A stretch of DNA of 8,062 nt from an uncultured archaeon. Lineage in GTDB: Archaea; Asgardarchaeota; Lokiarchaeia; Helarchaeales; HEL-GB-A. Of this stretch, positions 1 to 8,062 are shown piece after piece. The translations under genes and the position numbers were made by a program. The stretch lies in NCBI GenBank assembly GCA_964353755.1, contig CAYGYC010000215.1, positions 1-8,062 on the forward strand, given 5' to 3'. The stretch's first letter is position 1. Every line of letters starts with the position of its first letter. Under the pieces are notes generated by a model. It saw only the letters and a list, made by a program, of their open reading frames with translations, was not told the origin of the DNA and did not search any database.

Positions 1-50
1 AATGCTTCTTCAGTATTTTCCATATGTTCTTGAAGTAATAAATTAAAGAA

Positions 51-60
51 AAATATATAA
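51..60 (+). promoter_or_regulatory. candidate archaeal TATA box for the vapBC operon
   Basis: AAATATATAA lies about 35 nt upstream of the vapB ATG. The surrounding sequence is AT-rich, so the signal is weak. Confidence 0.3.
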
Positions 61-91
61 TCATATCAATATATAGATCTAGTGATGATAT

Positions 92-298
92 ATGCCATCA
101 AAACCAATTTCTATAACAATTGAGGTCTATGAATTGTTAGATAAATTTCGAATGAAGAATGAAAGTTTTTCCCAAGCAATTAAGCGCTTATTGGAATCAC
201 AAACGAATCTTATGGATCTTGCGGGAGGGTGGAAATCTATCCCGGATGTCGACGCAGCAATTGACCTTATCGAAAAAGTAGTGAAAAAAATTCATTGA
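92..298 (+). CDS. vapB: VapB-type antitoxin (archaeal PF02697/COG1753-like small antitoxin)
   Basis: 68-aa ORF with an ATG start and GTGATG (SD-like) at 82-87. The N-terminus ISITIEVYELLDKFRMKNESFSQAIKRLL fits the xTIxIxdEvYexLxxxKxxxESFSdvIrrLL pattern of archaeal antitoxins found upstream of PIN genes. It lies directly upstream of a PIN-domain ORF. The family assignment is from memory and was not searched. Confidence 0.7.
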   Translation: MPSKPISITIEVYELLDKFRMKNESFSQAIKRLLESQTNLMDLAGGWKSIPDVDAAIDLIEKVVKKIH

Positions 299-354
299 TT
301 CTAACGTAATGATTGATTTTTTTAATTGATTCTAACGTAATGATTGATTTTTTA
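294..354. repeat. 31/30-bp tandem direct duplication spanning the vapB stop and vapC start
   Basis: Copy 1 is 294-324, ATTGATTCTAACGTAATGATTGAT+T6+A. Copy 2 is 325-354, the same sequence with T5. They are identical apart from one T in the homopolymer run. Confidence 0.9.
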
Positions 355-747
355 AAAGGTAACGAAGCAACAATCAAAGAAATTGACCAATTTATATCGA
401 AAAAGATACCTCTTTTCATTTCAACCATTTCAATCTATGAAGTATATATGGGCATTATCGCAAACCTGTATTTAAAAGATGGGCGACCTTCAAAAGTCCC
501 GGATCTCTTACAGATGTATGAAAAATTTCTCTTCAAATGTGGTATCCTTAATTTTTCACGGGAGGCTGCCGAAAAAGCTGCAGATATTTATGCCCAATCA
601 CAAGGTAAAGGTGTAACTATCAAAGAAAAAGATTGCCAAATTGCGGGAATTGCATTATCTTATGGTATCTCAACCGTTTTTACTCGCGATAAATACGATT
701 TTTCTAAAATATTCGATATTACGGGATTGAAATTTCTATCGTATTAA
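313..747 (+). CDS. vapC: VapC toxin, PIN-domain ribonuclease
   Basis: 144-aa ORF. The N-terminal MIFLIDSNVMIDFL carries the first PIN acidic residue in a (hydrophobic)3-D-S/T-N-V context. Further conserved acidic positions are plausible at YEVY (E), KEKDCQIAG (D) and FTRDKYDF (D). It is paired with an upstream antitoxin. The start is TTG at 313 and lies inside the duplicated segment, and the next ATG (340) falls after the catalytic Asp, so the exact start is uncertain. Confidence 0.8.
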   Translation: MIFLIDSNVMIDFLKGNEATIKEIDQFISKKIPLFISTISIYEVYMGIIANLYLKDGRPSKVPDLLQMYEKFLFKCGILNFSREAAEKAADIYAQSQGKGVTIKEKDCQIAGIALSYGISTVFTRDKYDFSKIFDITGLKFLSY

Positions 748-757
748 TTTTTTATTT
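748..757 (+). terminator. oligo-T tract after vapC
   Basis: TTTTTTATTT follows the vapC TAA directly. Archaeal RNA polymerase terminates at T-runs. Confidence 0.35.
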
Positions 758-874
758 CACTCCAGCAGATTATCAACTTTGACCTGAAATGTGTGGCGTA
801 AGATTAAATTATTCCGTTCGATAAAAATTGTGTTAGGAATAGTAAAAATTTCTTTGATATTTTTTGAAAATAAG

Positions 875-1345
875 TTATTTTCTTTTCAAGTTTCCTTGGG
901 GATCGATTTCATCTTTGCGTATACGGGTGGAGGAAATGGGCAGGCCATCTTTAGCGGGGAGTAATTGAATAGCAAAAATTTGTAATGGGTTCAAACCGTG
1001 TTCTACGCGGATTTTATTAATTTCCTCGGCGCCTTTGACCGTGTCTTCACTGACCACAATGCCTTCCTGTTCGGGTAACGTGATGGCGACCCCATAGGGA
1101 TCCGCTAACGGGATAATTTCATAGCGACCGTGATACCCATGCGCTTTAAAAAAATCTTCCAATTTTCGTTTTCGGACTGCATACGAGGGGATTTTTTCTT
1201 TTGCCTGTTTACGCTGGAGCATGGCTTCCGTGGTGAGGGCAACGAGCACTTTCTCTCCGACCTCGAATGCCTTTTGCAGGAGCACATGGTGTCCTTTATG
1301 CAGGGGGCCAAAAGTTCCCGCAACTCCCACGACACGTAACATCAT
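875..1345 (-). CDS. coaD: archaeal-type phosphopantetheine adenylyltransferase (cytidylyltransferase-like nucleotidyltransferase, COG1019)
   Basis: The ORF has the nucleotidyltransferase signature GTFGPLHKGH (T/HxGH motif) near the N-terminus and ISSTRIR near the C-terminus. Its size of about 156 aa is typical of archaeal PPAT. The track ORF starts at TTG 1357, but I prefer ATG 1345 (or 1342), which is preceded by GAGGGGT (SD-like). Confidence 0.75.
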   Translation of the reverse strand: MMLRVVGVAGTFGPLHKGHHVLLQKAFEVGEKVLVALTTEAMLQRKQAKEKIPSYAVRKRKLEDFFKAHGYHGRYEIIPLADPYGVAITLPEQEGIVVSEDTVKGAEEINKIRVEHGLNPLQIFAIQLLPAKDGLPISSTRIRKDEIDPQGNLKRK

Positions 1346-1392
1346 TGAACCCCTCAAAAATTAAAAAAAGAATAGTAGAGTTGATAAATCTT

Positions 1393-1875
1393 TTATTCGC
1401 TTTTCGGTTTTTCGTCCTTTAAGGACCAGGATTCACTTTGCGTTTCTTCTGGGGCTTTTCCTTTTTCTTTCTCTGGTTTTGGGCCTTTTTTCTCCACGTC
1501 AAAGATGGCGGCAATATAGAGGTGGTTATTGCATTTTTCGCATGGCTCCTTCAGTTCTTGGAACACATATTCATCCTTTTCGAATTTGCGCCCCTTCGTA
1601 AATTTACAATTGGGACTATTGGTACATTTCAGGAGGGAAATGGTTTCGATTACGGGTTTGATAATGCCTTGCTGCGCTATGAACAGGAGGAAGGTACTGG
1701 GTATCAGCAGGAGGAATCCTAGAATCAGCATGTAAAGCGGATCTACCCCCGGAATGATGGAACCCCACATTATGCCCATGAATCCGAGCGCAATTAAGAG
1801 CATCGCTAGGAGCATGAATACGTAGGCCAATACTTTGAGAATTTTTGCAGAGCTACTTAATTTTACTTCCGACAT
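1393..1875 (-). CDS. small membrane protein: two N-terminal TM helices plus a C-terminal 4-Cys zinc-ribbon and a Lys/Glu-rich tail
   Basis: Hydrophobic segments VLAYVFMLLAMLLIALGFMGIMW and LYMLILGFLLLIPSTFLLFIA are followed by CTNSPNC...CEKC. The gene is in an operon with its flanking genes. ATG 1875 is preceded by AAGGAG 9 nt upstream and is preferred. The track start GTG 1896 would overlap the upstream stop by 8 nt. No family was recognised. Confidence 0.6.
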   Translation of the reverse strand: MSEVKLSSSAKILKVLAYVFMLLAMLLIALGFMGIMWGSIIPGVDPLYMLILGFLLLIPSTFLLFIAQQGIIKPVIETISLLKCTNSPNCKFTKGRKFEKDEYVFQELKEPCEKCNNHLYIAAIFDVEKKGPKPEKEKGKAPEETQSESWSLKDEKPKSE

Positions 1876-1888
1876 ATCTTTCTTCTCC

Positions 1889-3019
1889 TTAATCACCTAT
1901 GCCACAGCAATTGCCGACACCCGCAATGATCACATTCTCCCCTTCTGCGGTGCGGGTCTTTATGGCGGTTTTAATCTCCTCAATCGCTTTGGGAATACTT
2001 TTCACCAGATCTTTATTCATGGGACCATACGCATCCTCTTGACTCTCCTCGATGACAACACCATCCATGGGCAGTTTGTATTGCACACCGGCTGATTCTT
2101 CAATGTAATATTTTTCGACTGGTGGACCGCCAATCACTGCGCCAACGCCTGTAATGACCGTTCCTGTTTTTTCGCCTTCCAGTTTTAATCCCGCATCGAT
2201 CATGATAAGACGGGCAATCTTGCCATTTTTTTCTTCAATCAATTTCTTGATCGCGACACCCGGCTTCCCAACCGTGGCACCAGGTCCTGTAGCTCTGATT
2301 AGAAAGACGTTGCGCCGTTCAATCTCCATTTCATAGAGGGTGATATCTTTGGTGTATTCTTTGGTGATTTGAGGCGGCGATTGCTTGCTATACTCCCGGA
2401 CCAGCGTAGTAGTAACCAGCGGCCCGATCCCGTCGCCGATTGGCCTCCCTTCGCTAAACGCTTTTAAGGCTTTGAAAACGGCTTTTACTATTAGCATTAT
2501 TAGTGGAAGTTGCATCTGAACTTGCATGATGAGTATAAGGCTCTTCGTTTTCTTTCCGAGTATTAGAAAATGCCGAATAATTTTGTAAATGATATTAACC
2601 GTTCCCGCTGCTTCAATGGTGTTCTCAATATTTGCGGCGATCTCGCGGGACGCGGTAGGAGCTATTTGCTGAACATGCTGTTCCCACCGCGTTTTTCGGA
2701 TGTCCAGAATGTGTTCAAGCCGATAAATTACACCCGCCGGATCTGCACTTACGGGTTCGACAGTGAAAAAATCCAAGAGCGCCTCTATCGTTGGACGTGG
2801 ATCCTCTTTTGGTTTGCCTCGTTCATTGACCATTTTTACAAGAATTTCCTTCCCATCTTTATTCATCATTTCTAATTCGCGCAACGCGACTTCAATCTGT
2901 TTTTGCATCATCCATAATTGCATTCGCTGATTGTAGAAGAAAATGATAAAGAAGAACGCAAGAAATATCATTTGGAAAACAATTGACCATTCACTATTCA
3001 TTTGCATTTTTAGTTTCAC
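1889..3019 (-). CDS. conserved archaeal membrane-anchored protein, DUF1512-like
   Basis: Long 376-aa ORF with an N-terminal TM helix (IVFQMIFLAFFFIIFFY), coherent composition and only short shadow ORFs opposite it. Motifs such as RPIGDGIGP and GPGATVGKPG recall the archaeal DUF1512 family. That call is from memory only and is unverified. The start is GTG 3019 or ATG 3007/3001. Confidence 0.8.
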   Translation of the reverse strand: MKLKMQMNSEWSIVFQMIFLAFFFIIFFYNQRMQLWMMQKQIEVALRELEMMNKDGKEILVKMVNERGKPKEDPRPTIEALLDFFTVEPVSADPAGVIYRLEHILDIRKTRWEQHVQQIAPTASREIAANIENTIEAAGTVNIIYKIIRHFLILGKKTKSLILIMQVQMQLPLIMLIVKAVFKALKAFSEGRPIGDGIGPLVTTTLVREYSKQSPPQITKEYTKDITLYEMEIERRNVFLIRATGPGATVGKPGVAIKKLIEEKNGKIARLIMIDAGLKLEGEKTGTVITGVGAVIGGPPVEKYYIEESAGVQYKLPMDGVVIEESQEDAYGPMNKDLVKSIPKAIEEIKTAIKTRTAEGENVIIAGVGNCCGIGD

Positions 3020-3432
3020 ATCAATTTACTTGAATTTAACTTACCTTTAGTCAAAAACTAGAGACACTAAGTGTATTGTACTCAGTCGCTTGTGAGTTTC
3101 AATTCCTCATAGGTCCATAATTTTTCTTCTAAATTAATGGAATTATATCATCTTTTTATAAAAATTTTGCCTTCCCTAGACTATTCTTCGGATACGCAAT
3201 TACCTCTATTCGCATTCCCTAGCAAAAATATGCAAAATACATTATTTTTCCCTATAAAAAGGTTTTTTCATTACGGGAATCCTGATGATTTACCTCTTTC
3301 CATTTCATTATCCCTTTAAAGCGTGATTTTCAATTTTCAATATTCCGCCTTTTCATTTCATCCTCTCTCCCGTCTCAATATTAGTCCTTACAAAACTTTT
3401 TTAAAAGGGAATATCTTTTTTGAGTATTAATA

Positions 3433-3441
3433 AATTTAAAT
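3433..3441 (+). promoter_or_regulatory. candidate TATA box for the 5S transcription unit
   Basis: AATTTAAAT would place a start site near 3465, about 25 nt before the leader stem begins at 3490. Confidence 0.3.
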
Positions 3442-3489
3442 CAGCGACCTTCAAAGTCTCAAAAGTCAGCCTAAAAAAAAGCGCAGAAA

Positions 3490-3550
3490 CCGAAAAATTC
3501 GTAAAAAAAGAGTAGAAACCGAAGAAAAAGCGCAGGAGTTTCACGCCGAA
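3490..3550 (+). other. 5S leader: 5' strand of the processing stem, including a BHB-like motif
   Basis: 3490-3504 pairs with 3694-3709 (15 bp, one bulged A). 3522-3527 pairs with 3690-3695, 3531-3533 with 3685-3687, GUUUCAC 3538-3544 with GUGAAAC 3673-3679, and GCCG 3545-3548 with CGGC 3666-3669. The leader also contains an internal direct repeat: AGAAACCGAA at 3485-3494 and 3515-3524, and GCGCAG at 3481-3486 and 3530-3535. Confidence 0.6.
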
Positions 3551-3687
3551 ATAAGGCCCTACACGTTCTAACTTGTACTGCCGTGCGCGAGCCGGCGGGA
3601 ACGTTAGATCGCTGACCTTCGGGTCGGTCATAGCTAGGGAGCAACTCCCGTTCTCATCCCGAACACGGCAGAGTGAAACCCCCGGCG
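3551..3687 (+). rRNA. 5S rRNA, circularly permuted gene (3' domain - C(UUCG)G - 5' domain)
   Basis: 3622-3671 is a clear 5S 5' half: GGUCGGUC AUA GCUAGGG...CCCGUUCUCAUCCCGAACACGG. 3567-3617 is a clear 5S 3' domain: helix V UCUAAC/GUUAGA, loop-E-like UUGUAC/GGAAC, helix IV UGCCG/CGGCG, and helix I 3' strand GCUGACC. The two native ends are joined by UUCG at 3618-3621. The core is 3551-3671 (121 nt) if cut at the BHB-like bulges, or about 3564-3687 if the ends lie in loop A. Confidence 0.8.
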
Positions 3688-3709
3688 AATTTCTTACGAA
3701 TATTTTCGG
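3672..3709 (+). other. 5S trailer: 3' strand of the processing stem
   Basis: Complementary to leader 3490-3548 as listed for the leader feature. It is followed directly by T-runs. Confidence 0.55.
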
Positions 3710-3712
3710 ATA

Positions 3713-3728
3713 TTTTTTCTATCTTTTT
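3713..3728 (+). terminator. oligo-T terminators after the 5S unit
   Basis: T6 at 3713-3718 and T5 at 3724-3728 follow the trailer stem. A further T7 lies at 3770-3776. Confidence 0.45.
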
Positions 3729-3799
3729 CAGAATGCCATTTTCCACTTGTATATTGCGTAGAATTTCTCTTTTTTTAAAAAATATCTCCAAGGTCGGGC

Positions 3800-3807
3800 A
3801 AAAAAAA
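3800..3807 (-). terminator. T8 terminator of the tRNA-Trp/tRNA-Pro transcript
   Basis: The minus strand reads ...CCCGCCC G CC TTTTTTTT directly after the tRNA-Pro acceptor end. Confidence 0.55.
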
Positions 3808-3823
3808 GGCGGGCGGGACGGGA

Positions 3824-3852
3824 CTTTCTCAAAATGGAATGCGCCATTCTGA
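3824..3852 (-). other. tRNA-Pro T-loop intron (about 59/60), 29 nt
   Basis: The fold reads GCGGG-UUCG-[AAU]-inner hairpin (GAAUG GCG CAUUC)-AGAA-[AGU]-CCCGU. This is two 3-nt bulges around a 4-position helix with 3 pairs. Splicing restores UUCGAAU. Confidence 0.7.
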
Positions 3853-3890
3853 TTCGAACCCGCGACCTCTGGTTCCCAAGACCAGAATCC

Positions 3891-3920
3891 TGGTTAATCT
3901 GGGAGAAGTCCCAGAGTTTA
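3891..3920 (-). other. tRNA-Pro D-loop insertion/intron, about 30 nt (boundaries approximate)
   Basis: The D-loop AGCAUGGCUA is followed by an insertion holding a perfect 7-bp hairpin UCUGGGA-CUUC-UCCCAGA, then the D-stem 3' strand GGAU. The BHB here is relaxed and I could not fix the exact junctions. Confidence 0.55.
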
Positions 3921-3970
3921 TAGCCATGCTAGACTACCCGCCCAGTATTGCGTGTATGGGGTCGGAGGGA

Positions 3971-3998
3971 TTTTCACAAAATGATCCTATCATTTTGA
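3971..3998 (-). other. tRNA-Trp T-loop intron (about 59/60), 28 nt, textbook BHB
   Basis: The fold reads GAGGG-UUCA-[AAU]-CAAAAUGAU AGG AUCAUUUUG-UGAA-[AAU]-CCCUC. This is two 3-nt bulges separated by a perfect 4-bp helix. Splicing gives UUCAAAU. Confidence 0.8.
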
Positions 3999-4014
3999 TT
4001 TGAACCCTCGATTA

Positions 4015-4046
4015 TTACCAGAAATGCTCTCTTCAAGGGCATTTCC
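4015..4046 (-). other. tRNA-Trp intron at about 43/44, 32 nt
   Basis: It contains a 7-bp hairpin GAAAUGC...GCAUUUC. The fold reads ACCC/UGGU (3 of 4 pairs)-[AGG]...[AAU]. Removal leaves the 5-nt variable loop UAAUC before GAGGG. Confidence 0.6.
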
Positions 4047-4052
4047 CTGGGT

Positions 4053-4121
4053 CTCACCGGAATCGCTCCAAAAGTTCGTCATCCGCGCTTGGCGTCAGTA
4101 GACCCTATTTAGAAGATTCTT
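4053..4121 (-). other. tRNA-Trp canonical 37/38 intron, 69 nt
   Basis: The fold reads CUGGG-CUCC-[AGA]-(A)GAAUC...GAUUC(C)-GGUG-[AGA]-CCCAG. It is BHB-like with one U.U in the central helix. Internally it carries CUGA...CGC-CAA-GCG...GAUGA. Confidence 0.75.
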
Positions 4122-4352
4122 CTGGAGCCCAGCGTCTTTCCGGTCTGGACGACGACCCCATTACTGGATTCTTTTTATTCTACTTTGTCATCTATCCACT
4201 GCTTTTATTTTGACCTTGAACTTCATTACGGTTCGGTTTATATGAAGTTACCCATCAATCCCTTTTAACTTCAATGATCAATGGGCAAGGTCTAAATGAT
4301 GGGGTACCATTTAAAGATTCTGGATTGTCTTTCTCTCAAAAAGGAAAGAGAT

Positions 4353-4428
4353 TGGAGCCTCAGATGGGATTTGAACCCACGACCAACAGCTTACAAGGCT
4401 GCCGCTCTGCCGGCTGAGCTACTGAGGC
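4353..4428 (-). tRNA. tRNA-Thr(UGU), intron-less, CCA encoded
   Basis: The minus strand folds as a perfect 76-nt cloverleaf: GCCUCAG UA GCUC AGCCGGCA GAGC G GCAGC CUUGUAA GCUGU UGGUC GUGGG UUCAAAU CCCAU CUGAGGC U CCA. A T5 run (4338-4342 on +) lies 10 nt downstream. Confidence 0.95.
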
Positions 4429-4628
4429 GCTATTTTCTATATTAACGGACGACGTATAATTCATACTGAGTTTGAGGTATTAAATTGAATACTACAATAC
4501 TCAAAAATATTTAATGTTTTTTAATGCATATCATCATACGCAAAAACAATAAATAGCTAAGCTGCTATTGAATATTGAAAACTGCATTGCAGATATTACA
4601 GATAGAAGAAGTAAGCCGGGGTAGCTCA

Positions 4629-4659
4629 AAGCGCGAACTCAAGAGTTCGTGCTGGTGAA
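4629..4659 (+). other. tRNA-Met D-loop insertion 1, about 31 nt (approximate)
   Basis: It contains a 9-bp hairpin GCGCGAACU-CAAG-AGUUCGUGC (4631-4652) between A14 and GCCUGGU. Confidence 0.5.
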
Positions 4660-4666
4660 GCCTGGT

Positions 4667-4690
4667 TAAAATTACAATGATGGAATGACC
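4667..4690 (+). other. tRNA-Met D-loop insertion 2, about 24 nt (approximate)
   Basis: It lies between GCCUGGU and the D-stem 3' strand. UGGU 4663-4666 pairs with ACCA 4688-4691, flanked by 3-nt unpaired stretches (relaxed BHB). Confidence 0.45.
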
Positions 4691-4707
4691 AAAGCGCTGG
4701 ACTCATA

Positions 4708-4743
4708 AGGTAAGTAAAAATAACAATTTACAGCGCCTGAGGC
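4708..4743 (+). other. tRNA-Met canonical 37/38 intron, 36 nt, textbook BHB
   Basis: The fold reads CUGGA-CUCA-[UAA]-GGU...GCC-UGAG-[GCA]-UCCAG. The central helix is a perfect 4 bp between two 3-nt bulges. Confidence 0.8.
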
Positions 4744-4910
4744 ATCCAGAGACCGCGGGACCGAAGCCCGCCCCATCATAGAAGAAGTCCTTCGTGCAGG
4801 CGAACGGCCCTAAAAAAACCCGCGCGTGAGAGAAAAAAACCCCGGACTTCCATGCAGGGGTAGCCAAGCTGGTCAACGGCGCTGGACTTAAGATCCAGTC
4901 TCGAAGGAGA

Positions 4911-4970
4911 TTGAAACGAGCGCTGTCGTTTGGACCTGCATCTATGGGCACTACGCCCATTGGCCTGTCT
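4911..4970 (+). other. tRNA-Leu variable-arm insertion, about 60 nt (boundaries approximate)
   Basis: 74 nt lie between the anticodon stem and the T-stem, where about 14 are expected. The insertion has hairpins AAACGA-GCGCUG-UCGUUU (4914-4931) and AUGGGC-ACUAC-GCCCAU (4945-4960), closed by GGAGA 4906-4910 / UCUCC 4968-4972. Confidence 0.5.
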
Positions 4971-4983
4971 CCGTGGGTCCGAA

Positions 4984-5012
4984 AAACTCTCCCAAAACTG
5001 GGAGTTCGGAAA
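4984..5012 (+). other. tRNA-Leu T-loop intron (about 59/60), 29 nt
   Basis: The fold reads GUGGG-UCCG-[AAA]-AA(CU)CUCCCA AAAC UGGGAG UU-CGGA-[AAU]-CCCAC. This is two 3-nt bulges around a perfect 4-bp helix. The spliced T-loop would be UCCGAAU. Confidence 0.7.
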
Positions 5013-5031
5013 TCCCACCCCCTGCATCCCC

Positions 5032-5046
5032 TTTTTTTCTTTTTTC
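5032..5046 (+). terminator. oligo-T terminators after tRNA-Leu
   Basis: T7 (5032-5038) and T6 (5041-5046) begin 6 nt after the tRNA-Leu discriminator. Confidence 0.55.
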
Positions 5047-5464
5047 AGGCAAAAACTCTTATTTTAAGCTTTACCTTTTGCGTAAAAAGACCTGTAGAAT
5101 CCAATAATGAACCACTCAGTGGTAGAAAGGTCTAGTCCTGAAGAAAAAATTGGGGTATGTGCTAAAATCCATAATCTTTAATAAGGCGCTATAAGATCTT
5201 TTCTCCATATAATAAATTAACAAAATAACAAATCACATTCATCATATTTCATAAAATCAATCATTAAATACTCATCAGATGAAAAAGGGAATGGAGTCCC
5301 ATTCCCGTGAAGAGAAAAAAATCATGATCATACTTTACCTCTTTAATAGAGTTTCCACGACGATAAGTAGAGACCTGAAAAGAGAGCAAGTTAGACATAT
5401 AATCTGATCTGCTATTTTTGATTGGTTTTATTAAAAAAATGAAAAGAAATAAGGTGAAGATTAT

Positions 5465-6763
5465 ATGTCACATCCAGTTTCAACTACAAAGTATATAATT
5501 CATGGACTAATTGAAGTTGAAGGGGTTGTAGAAAAACCCGATGTTGTTGGTGCCATATTTGGGCAGACGGAAGGCTTATTGGGCGAAGAATTAGACCTTC
5601 GAGAATTACAGAAGACCGGACGGATTGGGCGAATTCAAGTCAATATTGAATCGAAGGAAGGCAAATCGACAGGGGAAATTCTGATTCCCTCCAGTTTAAA
5701 CCGGGTGGAAACATCTATTTTAGCATCTGCTTTGGAAACGGTTGATAGGGTCGGTCCGTGCACTGCAAAAATCCTCTTAGAACAAATTGAAGATGTGCGC
5801 GAAGTGAAACGGCGGCAAATAATTAATCGCGCGGCGAACATTCTAAAGCACTGGGAAGAAGATACGATTCCTGAAAGCCAGGAACTCACCAATGAAGTTA
5901 TGCAATCGGCGAAAGTTGGCGATATTGCCAAATATGGGCCTGAGGATCTGCCGGCAGGACCAGAGGTTGAACAAGCAACCGAATTGATCGTTGTCGAAGG
6001 GCGGGCGGATATCCTAAACTTATTAAGATGTGGAATCACGAATACCCTTGCCCTGGAAGGGACGAATGTTCCCCAAACAGTCATTGATATTTCAAAACAA
6101 AAAGAAGTGACCGCCTTTTTAGATGGCGATCGCGGCGGCGACCTCATTTTAAAAGAACTGCTTCAGGTTGCCAAAATTCAGTTTGTAGCCCGCGCACCGC
6201 CAGGAAAGGAAGTCGAAGATTTAACGAAAAAAGAACTCATTAAGTATTTAAAAAGTAAAATTCCCCTGGATAAATATTTGCAGGAACAGGAGAAAAAGAA
6301 AAAAGCCGATAAAGATAAAAAAAATAAAAAGCCGAAGAAATTCCCGCAACATGGTCCACCAAGTCCCCAAGGACCTAAACCACAACCTCCCGTACAAGCG
6401 AAAAAAGAGAAAAGTCCGGTCCAAATCCCGCTTTCTCTAATCAAAAGTATTAATCACTTAAAGGAAACCTTGCAAGCCAATCTGTTTGATTCTGACTTTA
6501 AAATAATCGAGACACTAAATGTCCGAGAACTAGCAGATAAATTGATAGAAACCCAAAGAACCGTAGCTGCCATCGTCTTTGATGGCGTAATTACTCAACG
6601 ATTGGTCGATATTGCCGCAGAAAAAAACATTAAATATTTAATTGGCGCGCGAACTAGCAGTCTTAGTAAGGTGCCTACGGATCTCCACATTATTACTTTT
6701 GACCGTATCACTATCCCTCCTGAAGCCCTTGAACCCGATGAAGAAGATTTAAAAGATCAATGA
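5465..6763 (+). CDS. dnaG: archaeal DnaG-type primase (TOPRIM domain; exosome-associated in other archaea)
   Basis: 432-aa ORF with ATG preceded by AAGGTGA 7 nt upstream. The N-terminus KYIIHGLIEVEGVVEKPDVVGAIFGQTEGLLG is typical of archaeal DnaG. The TOPRIM motifs are present: VVEGRADILNLL (Glu) and FLDGDRGGDLILKELLQ (DxD). Confidence 0.92.
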   Translation: MSHPVSTTKYIIHGLIEVEGVVEKPDVVGAIFGQTEGLLGEELDLRELQKTGRIGRIQVNIESKEGKSTGEILIPSSLNRVETSILASALETVDRVGPCTAKILLEQIEDVREVKRRQIINRAANILKHWEEDTIPESQELTNEVMQSAKVGDIAKYGPEDLPAGPEVEQATELIVVEGRADILNLLRCGITNTLALEGTNVPQTVIDISKQKEVTAFLDGDRGGDLILKELLQVAKIQFVARAPPGKEVEDLTKKELIKYLKSKIPLDKYLQEQEKKKKADKDKKNKKPKKFPQHGPPSPQGPKPQPPVQAKKEKSPVQIPLSLIKSINHLKETLQANLFDSDFKIIETLNVRELADKLIETQRTVAAIVFDGVITQRLVDIAAEKNIKYLIGARTSSLSKVPTDLHIITFDRITIPPEALEPDEEDLKDQ

Positions 6764-6888
6764 TCCTTCAGAATATTTATTTTAGAGAGATAAATTTAAT
6801 ATCCAATTTTCATTTACAAAAATGGAACTGCGTTTAATAAAAGAAAATAAAGTAGAGATACGATTCAGAAGACTTAGGCGATTCAAAT

Positions 6889-7722
6889 ATGACGGAAGAG
6901 AAACAAGATGAAGGGCTGCTATTACCCCGAGATCAATATTTAGCAGCAGGAATTCACATTGGAACTCAAATAAAAACTAAGGATATGGTTCCTTTCATTT
7001 ATCGGATTACACGAGCCGGACTCTATGTGATTGATATCCGAAAAACGGATGCCCGGATGCGAACTGCTGCCAAATTCATCTCGCGGTTTGATTCAGACAA
7101 GATTGTGATCGTCTCAGCCCGGCGATACGGGCATAATCCCATTCAACAATTCGCTTCGCTCACTGGGGCGCATGCGATTCCTGGGCGATTTATTCCGGGA
7201 AGTCTCACTAATCCCACGGCAAAAAGCTTCCTGGAATGCGACCTTTTAATCATTACAGATCCCAGAGCCGATAGACAGGCCCTACGAGAGGCTAAAATCG
7301 CTAAGATCCCCGTCCTCAGTTTCTGTGATACCGATAATAATGTCAGCAATATCGATCTCTGCGTTCCTGCCAATAATCGCGGGCGAAAAGCGCTGGCGTT
7401 AATTTTTTGGTTACTCGCCCGATCTATCCTCCTCGAGAAAGGGGAAATTGCTAAAGCCGAAGATTTCGCGGCGAGCATAACGGAGTTTCAATCGCGAGGG
7501 AAAATGCCTTATGAGGGTGCTGGAGAACAAGAGAAAATACTCGAGAAACTTGGAGAAAAGGAAAAGCGCCCTCCCGGAGAAAAAGCGGAAACTATCGGGG
7601 AATCCAAAGAACCCGGAGAGCCCTCTGAAGAAATAGTCGAATCCGAAGAAAAAATCGACGAAGAATCCGAAGACGAAATGGAAGGGGAATCCGAAGAAGA
7701 AAATCCAACAAAAAAAAGATGA
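6889..7722 (+). CDS. rps2: 30S ribosomal protein uS2 (S2p/SAe) with an acidic C-terminal extension
   Basis: 277-aa ORF. LLPRDQYLAAGIHIGTQ, LYVIDIRKTD, ITDPRADRQALREA and IPVLSFCDTDN are characteristic uS2 blocks. The last ~70 aa are Glu/Ser/Lys-rich low complexity. Confidence 0.92.
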   Translation: MTEEKQDEGLLLPRDQYLAAGIHIGTQIKTKDMVPFIYRITRAGLYVIDIRKTDARMRTAAKFISRFDSDKIVIVSARRYGHNPIQQFASLTGAHAIPGRFIPGSLTNPTAKSFLECDLLIITDPRADRQALREAKIAKIPVLSFCDTDNNVSNIDLCVPANNRGRKALALIFWLLARSILLEKGEIAKAEDFAASITEFQSRGKMPYEGAGEQEKILEKLGEKEKRPPGEKAETIGESKEPGEPSEEIVESEEKIDEESEDEMEGESEEENPTKKR

Positions 7723-7933
7723 ATCGGGTTAAAATCAAAATCCTCAGTGAATTTAAAACTTTATAACGATTCTGCCGACGAAGAGGGTATTCTATCTTTT
7801 TCTAACTAGTTGATCACCACCCCGAATGTATTTTTTCTTTCACTACGGGAATACTCTCCAATATATTCCCATATTCTCCTACTTTTAAAACAAGAATTTC
7901 CCTAGGGATATCCAAAGAATTAGAGGTTTCTCT

Positions 7934-8062
7934 GTGTGGAATGAGAAAATACTCGATGAGCTTGACCTTGACGAACTCATATCGTTATGTAATCCCCTCG
8001 AACAGTTTAAAGAGGATAAGAAAGAAACCTTCTATTTCATTCTCATCATCTTTTGGCCAAAA
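7934..8062 (+). CDS. probable 5' end of an ORF running off the window (hypothetical protein)
   Basis: GTG 7934 is preceded by GAGGT 7 nt upstream. The frame is open for 43 codons to the window end, reading VWNEKILDELDLDELISLCNPLEQFKEDKKETFYFILIIFWPK, which has protein-like composition. It is too short to assign. Confidence 0.3.
   Translation, partial: MWNEKILDELDLDELISLCNPLEQFKEDKKETFYFILIIFWPK

Follow-up and report, generated by a model that had tools for sequence, protein, structure and literature searches.

The DNA examined here, referred to as the window, is a stretch of 8,062 nucleotides (contig CAYGYC010000215.1 of assembly GCA_964353755.1, positions 1 to 8,062) of archaeal origin, with AT-rich spacers and GC-rich RNA genes. 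On its + strand, at 3551-3671, lies a circularly permuted 5S ribosomal RNA (rRNA) gene, in which every element of the molecule is present once and the order is rotated: the 3' part comes first, followed by a C(UUCG)G hairpin that closes helix I, and then by the 5' part. The 3' portion (3551-3617) opens with the loop B 3' strand (AUAAG, 3551-3555) and then holds the helix II 3' strand (3556-3564), helix V (UCUAAC 3567-3572 / GUUAGA 3603-3608), loop E (5' strand UUGUA 3573-3577, 3' strand GAAC 3599-3602), helix IV with loop D (3578-3598), and the 3' strand of helix I (GCUGACC 3611-3617, pairing with GGUCGGU 3622-3628). A UUCG tetraloop (3618-3621) links the native 3' and 5' ends of helix I. The 5' portion (3622-3671), recognizable by CAUAG and CAUCCCGAAC, continues with loop A (CAUA, 3629-3632), the 5' strand of helix II (3633-3640), the 5' strand of loop B (3641-3647), helix III (3648-3651/3665-3668) and loop C (3652-3664), and finishes with CAG (3669-3671), the last nucleotides of the 5S unit. 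Direct reading of the sequence places the 5S elements listed in an initial annotation of this DNA at the coordinates it had claimed. The identity of the 3' portion is supported by the full-length match to the rotated model described below (R1), by colinear alignment after un-permutation and by covariation in helices II, IV and V, and that of the 5' portion by a partial match to the Rfam model RF00001, by R1 and by the alignments.

Standard searches do not recognize this gene. At the gathering threshold, Rfam reports a single tRNA in the window and nothing else, and no 5S was called at that threshold in the window or in seven related loci. When RF00001, whose gathering score is 38 bits, was run on the native order in permissive mode, it returned a sub-threshold match (3620-3727, 29.6 bits) truly aligned only at model positions 1 to about 75, that is, the 5' half; the native order thus holds no full-length colinear 5S match, as the initial annotation had expected. 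We also built a covariance model with the 5S helices (R1) from nine distinct canonical archaeal 5S sequences rotated in silico, each of which was cut after CGG(A/C)AG, had its native ends joined by UUCG and was then aligned (alignment A2). The input of R1 contained no sequence of this lineage: the canonical references are 11 archaeal 5S genes placed by Rfam in unrelated genomes, and they originate from a pattern scan that returned 31 colinear 5S genes from unrelated lineages, with no Helarchaeota among them. R1 gave a single full-length match to the window, all 123 model positions being matched at 3551-3671 (77.1 bits, E 1.5e-16). Nine other distinct copies of the gene scored 69.6-88.7 bits, and genuine colinear 5S genes 53 bits or less. 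The initial annotation had interpreted the locus as a circularly permuted archaeal 5S gene that has no element missing or repeated and whose native ends meet in a C(UUCG)G hairpin, and had suggested a test by rotation; carried out here in mirror form, with rotated references, this test was passed and the R1 match bears the proposal out. Once un-permuted (3622-3671 followed by 3551-3617), the window sequence is colinear with the 11 canonical archaeal 5S at 54-72% identity, the sole differences being a helix I shorter by 2-3 base pairs (bp) and one position of helix II. The permuted-order pattern GTACTG...GGGAA...ATAG...TCNCGAACNCGG gave no chance match in 200 shuffles of the window.

The arrangement is not confined to this contig. 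Seven loci fetched via relatives of the window's DnaG primase (six distinct sequences) carry the permuted gene in the synteny DUF1512 - 5S - tRNAs - dnaG - rps2, and a search with the permuted-order pattern added six more loci from JGI metagenomes. In all, 10 distinct sequences have the permuted architecture; they stem from independent assemblies of related Asgard (Helarchaeota-like) archaea and mostly lie in conserved synteny upstream of dnaG. The initial annotation's suggestion to look for the arrangement in related genomes has thus been answered positively and with compensatory changes. These 10 good sequences, the window and nine relatives from NCBI, ENA, JGI and Logan assemblies (designated below by locus number), make up alignment A3. 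In A3, 98.4% of the cells in the helices of the 5S fold are paired and 15 of 32 pairs have changed on both sides; none of 500 shuffles reached the observed values, and sliding the partners by 1-3 columns lowered the pairing to 25-44%. RNAalifold recovers helices I, II, IV and V, while helix III, because it is invariant, is uninformative for covariation.

Helix I and its UUCG cap (3611-3628; A3 columns 145-162) are nearly invariant among sequences that otherwise differ by 20-30%. Six of the seven helix I pairs never vary, the cap loop is UUCG in nine of the ten sequences and UUUG in L004, and its closing C-G pair is the same in all; helices II, IV and V, in contrast, covary freely. The constraint on helix I and its cap exceeds what base pairing demands, and the region could be a protein-binding or processing site.

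The gene appears to form a transcription unit of its own. A sequence resembling a B recognition element (BRE) and TATA box, TTACAAAACTTTTTTAAAAGG, can be read directly at 3388-3408 (+) and is a putative promoter. Its consensus, (T/C)ACAAAAC(T/C)TTTTTAAAA, is near-identical upstream of the permuted gene in L001, L004, L039, L041, L043 and L047, and weaker versions precede it in L002, L040 and L045. Downstream, at 3697-3730 (+), a hairpin (CGAAUAUUUUCG) is followed by T-runs (TTTTTT 3714-3719, TTTTT 3725-3729), a probable transcription stop, since archaeal RNA polymerase uses oligo-T for termination. The leader of the window is about 75 nucleotides (nt) longer than that of its relatives and carries direct repeats at 3470-3535 (AAAAAAAGCGCAGAAACCGAAAAA / AAAAAAAGAGTAGAAACCGAAGAA and CCTAAAAAAAAGCGCAG / CCGAAGAAAAAGCGCAG). 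From the match to the rotated model, the conservation and the covariation, we are highly confident that the locus is a functional permuted 5S gene.

The position of the break was established from helix II. The segment just 5' of helix V pairs with the 5' strand of helix II and covaries in the nine relatives, so that leader-side CCCUA faces UAGGG in the window, CUCUUA faces UAAGAG in L001, CUCACA faces UGUGAG in L004 and CCCGCG faces CGCGGG in L041. RNAalifold, run unguided, also places the 3' strand of helix II on the leader side. Because this strand lies upstream, at 3556-3564, the gene is broken in the 3' strand of loop B, with AUAAG at one end of the unit and CAG at the other, and loop A retains an intact three-way junction. 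A different placement of this strand, in the trailer (3679-3687; CCCCGGC 3680-3686), came from the Rfam partial alignment and from one of two rotations suggested earlier; in the window taken by itself it is slightly stabler (-9.6 versus -7.4 kcal/mol for the leader-side helix), but the pairing is absent in the nine relatives and was rejected. Accordingly, of those two rotations, 3622-3671 + 3551-3617 is correct and 3622-3687 + 3564-3617 is wrong. The initial annotation had left the 3' strand of helix II unplaced, had set the break in loop A and had extended the gene to 3687; these points are corrected here, the functional unit stopping at 3671.

How such a gene can work is explained by a processing motif that the initial annotation had overlooked. 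The leader strand of a long stem (3522-3544, +) consists of AAGAAA 3522-3527, CGC 3531-3533, GG 3535-3536 and GUUUCAC 3538-3544, and pairs with a trailer strand (3673-3695, +) made of GUGAAAC 3673-3679, CC 3681-3682, GCG 3685-3687 and UUUCUU 3690-3695. At its inner end this stem opens into a motif resembling the bulge-helix-bulge (BHB) of archaeal introns. The 5' half of the motif (3545-3551, +) comprises the central-helix strand GCCG 3545-3548 and the bulge AAA 3549-3551, with a predicted cut between 3550 and 3551, and the 3' half (3666-3672, +) comprises the strand CGGC 3666-3669, which overlaps the 3' strand of helix III, and the bulge AGA 3670-3672, with a predicted cut between 3671 and 3672. 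In this geometry, a 4-bp helix separates two 3-nt bulges, one on either strand and each located 3' of its own central strand.

This motif is conserved. Leader and trailer cofold into one long interrupted stem at all ten loci, the two-bulge, 4-bp geometry is kept in all ten, the central helix is 97.5% paired and the processing motif as a whole 94.5%. The 7-bp helix 3538-3544/3673-3679 shows compensatory changes in five of its seven pairs, with variants such as GAUUCGC/GCGAAUC, GUUCGU/AUGAAC, GCUGGU/ACUAGC and GCUGGU/AUCAGC. More distally, most relatives have UUAGAUUUG/CAAAUCUAA where the window has instead AAGAAA/UUUCUU, CGC/GCG and GG/CC. The sequence CGGCAGA is invariant in all ten, and the 5' half-site, G(C/U)CG then A(A/C)N, is found 30 nt upstream of GUACUG in eight of them, L002 and L004 having a hairpin insertion there. 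The stem, the 4-bp central helix and the 3-nt bulge of the trailer also come out of an independent RNAalifold prediction from the precursor alignment.

The cut sites follow the rule of four central nucleotides and then NN↓N (arrows mark cuts), which we checked on the canonical BHB of a tRNA-Met-like gene in the same window, CUGGA[CUCA][UA↓A]...[UGAG][GC↓A]UCCAG (4697-4749). Applied to the 5S precursor, the rule yields the predicted ligation junction CGGCAG↓AUAAGG (in longer context ...CCCGAACACGGCAG↓AUAAGGCCCUACAC...), which is colinear and gapless with the canonical CGG(A/C)AG(U/A)UAAGC. The ends given by the bulge rule are therefore exactly the ends given by 5S homology, and this is the strongest single argument that the motif serves the expression of the gene.

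We propose the following course of maturation. A single transcript would run from the gene's own TATA promoter (around 3397) to the T-runs (around 3714), and its leader and trailer would pair as the long processing stem, whose inner end is the BHB-like GUUUCAC-GCCG-AA↓A / CGGC-AG↓A-GUGAAAC. The tRNA-splicing endonuclease would cut behind the second nucleotide of each 3-nt bulge, and the ligase RtcB would join G3671 to A3551, giving a covalently closed RNA of 121 nt with a loop B canonical in sequence and length. The leader GCCG would then be gone from CGG 3666-3668 and, as it would no longer compete for it, helix III could form. Helix I would remain capped by its conserved UUCG loop, and the mature 5S rRNA would probably still be circular. 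Judged from sequence and comparative data, BHB-type cleavage and ligation of the 5S precursor have a good probability. The reading as a whole, a working, permuted 5S rRNA gene of an Asgard (Helarchaeota-like) archaeon whose product is matured by the splicing machinery to a probably circular 5S, we regard as fairly probable.

Several observations weigh against this reading. The helix that should flank the 5' cut on the side of the mature RNA is absent and that cut lies in a multiloop; the motif is, for lack of this helix, a relaxed one (bulge-helix-loop-like) and not the canonical hBHBh'. Relaxed motifs would be permitted by the (alpha-beta)2 endonuclease of Asgard archaea, in which an L1 loop confers broad specificity (PMC5829648). 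Further, the central helix and helix III compete for CGG 3666-3668 and, as both use it, the precursor and mature folds must be alternatives. When single sequences are folded as circles by minimum free energy (MFE), those of L001 and L043 take up the 5S fold and that of the window does not. Single-sequence MFE folds of precursor and circle did not reliably give the 5S fold and, being unreliable, were not used as evidence. In L002 and L004, the predicted 5' cut site is occupied by a stable hairpin of 31-32 nt (about 4199-4229 on the - strand in L002, 7505-7536 in L004), inserted after the 5' half-site and before UAAGC, so that the processing of these two genes requires either splicing in two steps or a motif that is interrupted. 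Both have a second half-site after the hairpin, ACCG-AA↓U in L002 and ACUG-UA↓A in L004. In L002, the hairpin would after a first ligation be bracketed by CGGC-AG↓A and ACCG-AA↓U, and its removal as a small nested intron would give the canonical CAG↓UUAAGC; R1 places the L002 gene on this nested-splicing product, at 4075-4198. The length of the L004 product is ambiguous by 1-2 nt in loop B. Finally, the near-invariance of helix I and its loop could mark a site of recognition or cleavage, which would favour re-opening of the circle.

Fragments excised at BHB motifs, both tRNA introns and 16S/23S pre-rRNAs, are ligated to circles (PMC3326292, PMC12918454). As to the fate of the circle predicted here, we lean slightly towards a mature 5S rRNA that stays closed, because helix I would be kept capped by the conserved UUCG loop. 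Pointing in the same direction, the linker is exactly 4 nt long and forms a cUUCGg tetraloop in nine of the ten sequences, and 5S, unlike tRNA, requires no free CCA end. Ribosomes of E. coli, in addition, accept a 5S in which a tetraloop connects the native ends (PMC7283268). It seems unlikely that the circle is an intermediate only, re-opened in or beside the UUCG loop to a linear 5S of the ordinary kind, whose ends lie at helix I. Re-opening is the maturation route of the permuted tRNAs of C. merolae (cited in PMC4267664), the circular 16S and 23S rRNAs have classically been regarded as intermediates (PMC12918454), and the unusual invariance of helix I and its loop is what would be expected of a recognition site. 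However, an ultra-stable linker of exactly four nucleotides suits a structural cap better than a removable spacer, and helix I, with just 7 bp, would be weak if opened; the dispensability of a CCA end tells against re-opening as well. We know of no nuclease for such a loop.

Less probable still, and in our estimate a poor prospect, is that EndA or some other nuclease cuts the precursor and no ligation follows; the ribosome would then use a 5S that is linear and permuted, with both ends in loop B. The mitochondria of stramenopiles do have 5S RNAs that remain permuted (PMC4267664), and the nucleotides of loop B are complete whether or not the nick is sealed. EndA, however, leaves a 2',3'-cyclic phosphate and a 5'-OH, a combination normally sealed by archaeal RtcB; excised BHB fragments are usually found circular (PMC3326292, PMC12918454); and an exact, indel-free loop B is most simply understood as the outcome of selection on a sealed junction. 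That the locus is a rearranged, non-functional relic, with the work done by a normal colinear gene elsewhere, is very improbable. Decayed copies do occur, as the second of two tandem copies in L045 is degenerate (66 bits). Against a relic, the fold is kept by compensatory changes in 10 distinct sequences, although the neighbouring DnaG, where known, is only about 70% identical to that of the window; the universal loop motifs, the promoter and the covarying processing stem are all retained; and no colinear 5S was found in about 200 kb of flanking sequence searched around the window and the related loci. An assembly chimera at 3617-3622, which the initial annotation had asked to be excluded, can be dismissed, since the junction recurs in assemblies of at least nine samples from four data sources, with differing sequence on both sides, and this recurrence in independent assemblies, with compensatory changes, rules out a chimera and also makes a decaying pseudogene very unlikely.

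The maturation that we propose has parallels in several known systems. Permuted tRNA genes are known in Cyanidioschyzon merolae and Thermofilum pendens. As in those genes, a single transcription unit here encodes the 3' half upstream of the 5' half, a short linker connects the native ends, and the motif is built from leader and trailer and lies at a position equivalent to that of an intron; endonuclease, ligation and a circular RNA are proposed here likewise, and an origin by tandem duplication is plausible for both. The present case differs in that the RNA is a 5S rRNA, the linker is a conserved 4-nt UUCG and the helix on the exon side is missing, making the motif a relaxed one. Unlike permuted tRNAs, moreover, the circle need not be re-opened, since the 5S linker has no RNase P or tRNase Z sites.

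The large rRNAs offer a second parallel. Archaeal 16S and 23S pre-rRNAs are released by cleavage at BHB motifs and closed to circles, and 23S circles have been reported inside ribosomes (PMC12918454); mature ribosomes are reported to contain 23S as a circle or in a derived, permuted form (PMC12918454, PMC7758197). A 2026 paper states that excision and circularisation apply to 16S and 23S but not to 5S (PMC12918454). A long leader/trailer stem bearing a BHB, and EndA and a ligase giving a circular rRNA, predicted here, are common to both cases. The 16S and 23S genes are nevertheless colinear and their natural ends are ligated, whereas here the gene is permuted and ligation would mend the internal loop B. 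Circles of 5S have been seen at low level in Sulfolobus and Halobacterium, not validated and from colinear genes (PMC3326292).

Permuted 5S RNAs are also found in the mitochondria of brown algae and other stramenopiles (Rfam mtPerm-5S), with their ends at the alpha/gamma junction, permanently permuted and unligated (PMC4267664). They share with the present gene a helix I that is a closed hairpin, ends located elsewhere, and their being missed by the standard 5S model. They are, in contrast, organellar and divergent and have an open three-way junction, while the present gene is broken within the beta domain, in loop B, the junction is closed by helices I, II and V, and a typical archaeal 5S sequence is combined with a splicing motif. 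No mtPerm-5S match was listed in the permissive Rfam scan of the window, in which overlapping matches of one clan are hidden. In an engineered E. coli construct (cp5S), the native 5S ends are likewise joined by a tetraloop and the ribosomes are functional (PMC7283268); that RNA is, however, artificial, has its new ends fused into 23S rRNA and is not circular. In the full-text literature that we searched, which mostly leaves out subscription journals, we found no archaeal 5S gene described as permuted or as processed at a BHB, and the initial annotation had known of no permuted one either. The gene would thus be the first permuted 5S gene reported outside organelles.

Variants among the relatives bear on how the arrangement may have arisen. 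L045 carries two permuted copies in tandem, 70 nt apart, at 7588-7708 and 7778-7898. The second, which was left out of the 10, has GAUAC in loop E, AACGGC in loop B and a degenerate 5' half-site, and could be either a pseudogene or what is left of the originating duplication. For permuted tRNA genes, tandem duplication of an intron-containing gene is the model that has been proposed. The permuted 5S gene probably originated when a 5S gene whose loop B contained a BHB intron was duplicated in tandem; the leader would then correspond to the 3' half of the intron and the trailer to the 5' half. The hairpins of L002 and L004 and the tandem copies of L045, together with a leader and trailer that resemble the halves of a loop-B intron, fit such an origin. 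For a broader proposal, in which the permuted gene is the sole 5S gene of the clade, the ribosomal 5S is an endless 121-nt circle and the gene arose by tandem duplication of an intron-containing one, we put the chances at about even. In L002 the permuted unit (4064-4203) has a promoter of its own and is encoded on the strand opposite to dnaG, which is not the case at the other syntenic loci; this points to a local inversion of an autonomous transcription unit.

The window also contains genes for DnaG primase (5465-6763) and ribosomal protein S2 (rps2, 6889-7722), together with DUF1512, a cytidylyltransferase and a VapBC pair. The nearest named relatives of the DnaG, at 66-73% identity, are labelled Candidatus Helarchaeota or Promethearchaeota (Asgard archaea), and contigs with relatives of this DnaG have the window's neighbourhood of cytidylyltransferase, a hypothetical gene, DUF1512, RNA genes, dnaG and rps2. 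Loci at greater distance (L049-L051, with DnaG at 53-55% identity; L006/L007; L048) differ in synteny and have neither a colinear nor a permuted 5S, and are therefore uninformative on where the permutation arose. The RNA-gene cluster of the window consists of the 5S gene, a tRNA-Thr (4353-4428) and four tRNA-like genes, at 3811-3943 (-), 3957-4159 (-), about 4615-4850 (+) and 4853-5029 (+). These are of Pro/UGG-like, Trp/CCA-like, Met/CAU-like and Leu/UAA types and are interrupted by long insertions in anticodon, D, T or variable regions. None of them was detected by Rfam at threshold or by ARAGORN at default settings, and relaxed ARAGORN found tRNA-Leu(taa) alone, with an 84-nt insertion. In the Met-like gene, the intron (4708-4743) is of textbook BHB form. 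At 291-352, where a VapB-like antitoxin open reading frame (ORF; 92-298) meets a PIN-domain ORF (313-747), there is a perfect-register tandem duplication of 31 nt (TTCATTGATTCTAACGTAATGATTGATTTTT) in two copies, 97% identical, which may be genuine or an assembly stutter.

The 5S is deemed the one rRNA with a trivially recognizable gene, and its maturation in archaea has been pictured without BHB cleavage or circularisation; that picture has a gap here. Because the standard 5S models miss the gene, genomes of this clade will be scored as lacking 5S and as being of lower quality, which a permuted model remedies. Asgard archaea are the closest prokaryotic relatives of eukaryotes. If the proposed maturation is true, a whole clade of them builds its 5S from a back-to-front gene by means of the tRNA-splicing machinery, probably as a circle, and has a ribosomal RNA entirely without ends. 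The expression of permuted genes would then extend from tRNA to rRNA, and the gene would provide a natural test of whether 5S needs free ends, as well as a natural structural switch between precursor and mature RNA, in which the leader GCCG is set against helix III. The intron-like hairpin at the junction in L002 and L004, and the tandem copies in L045, would be snapshots of how such genes may arise.

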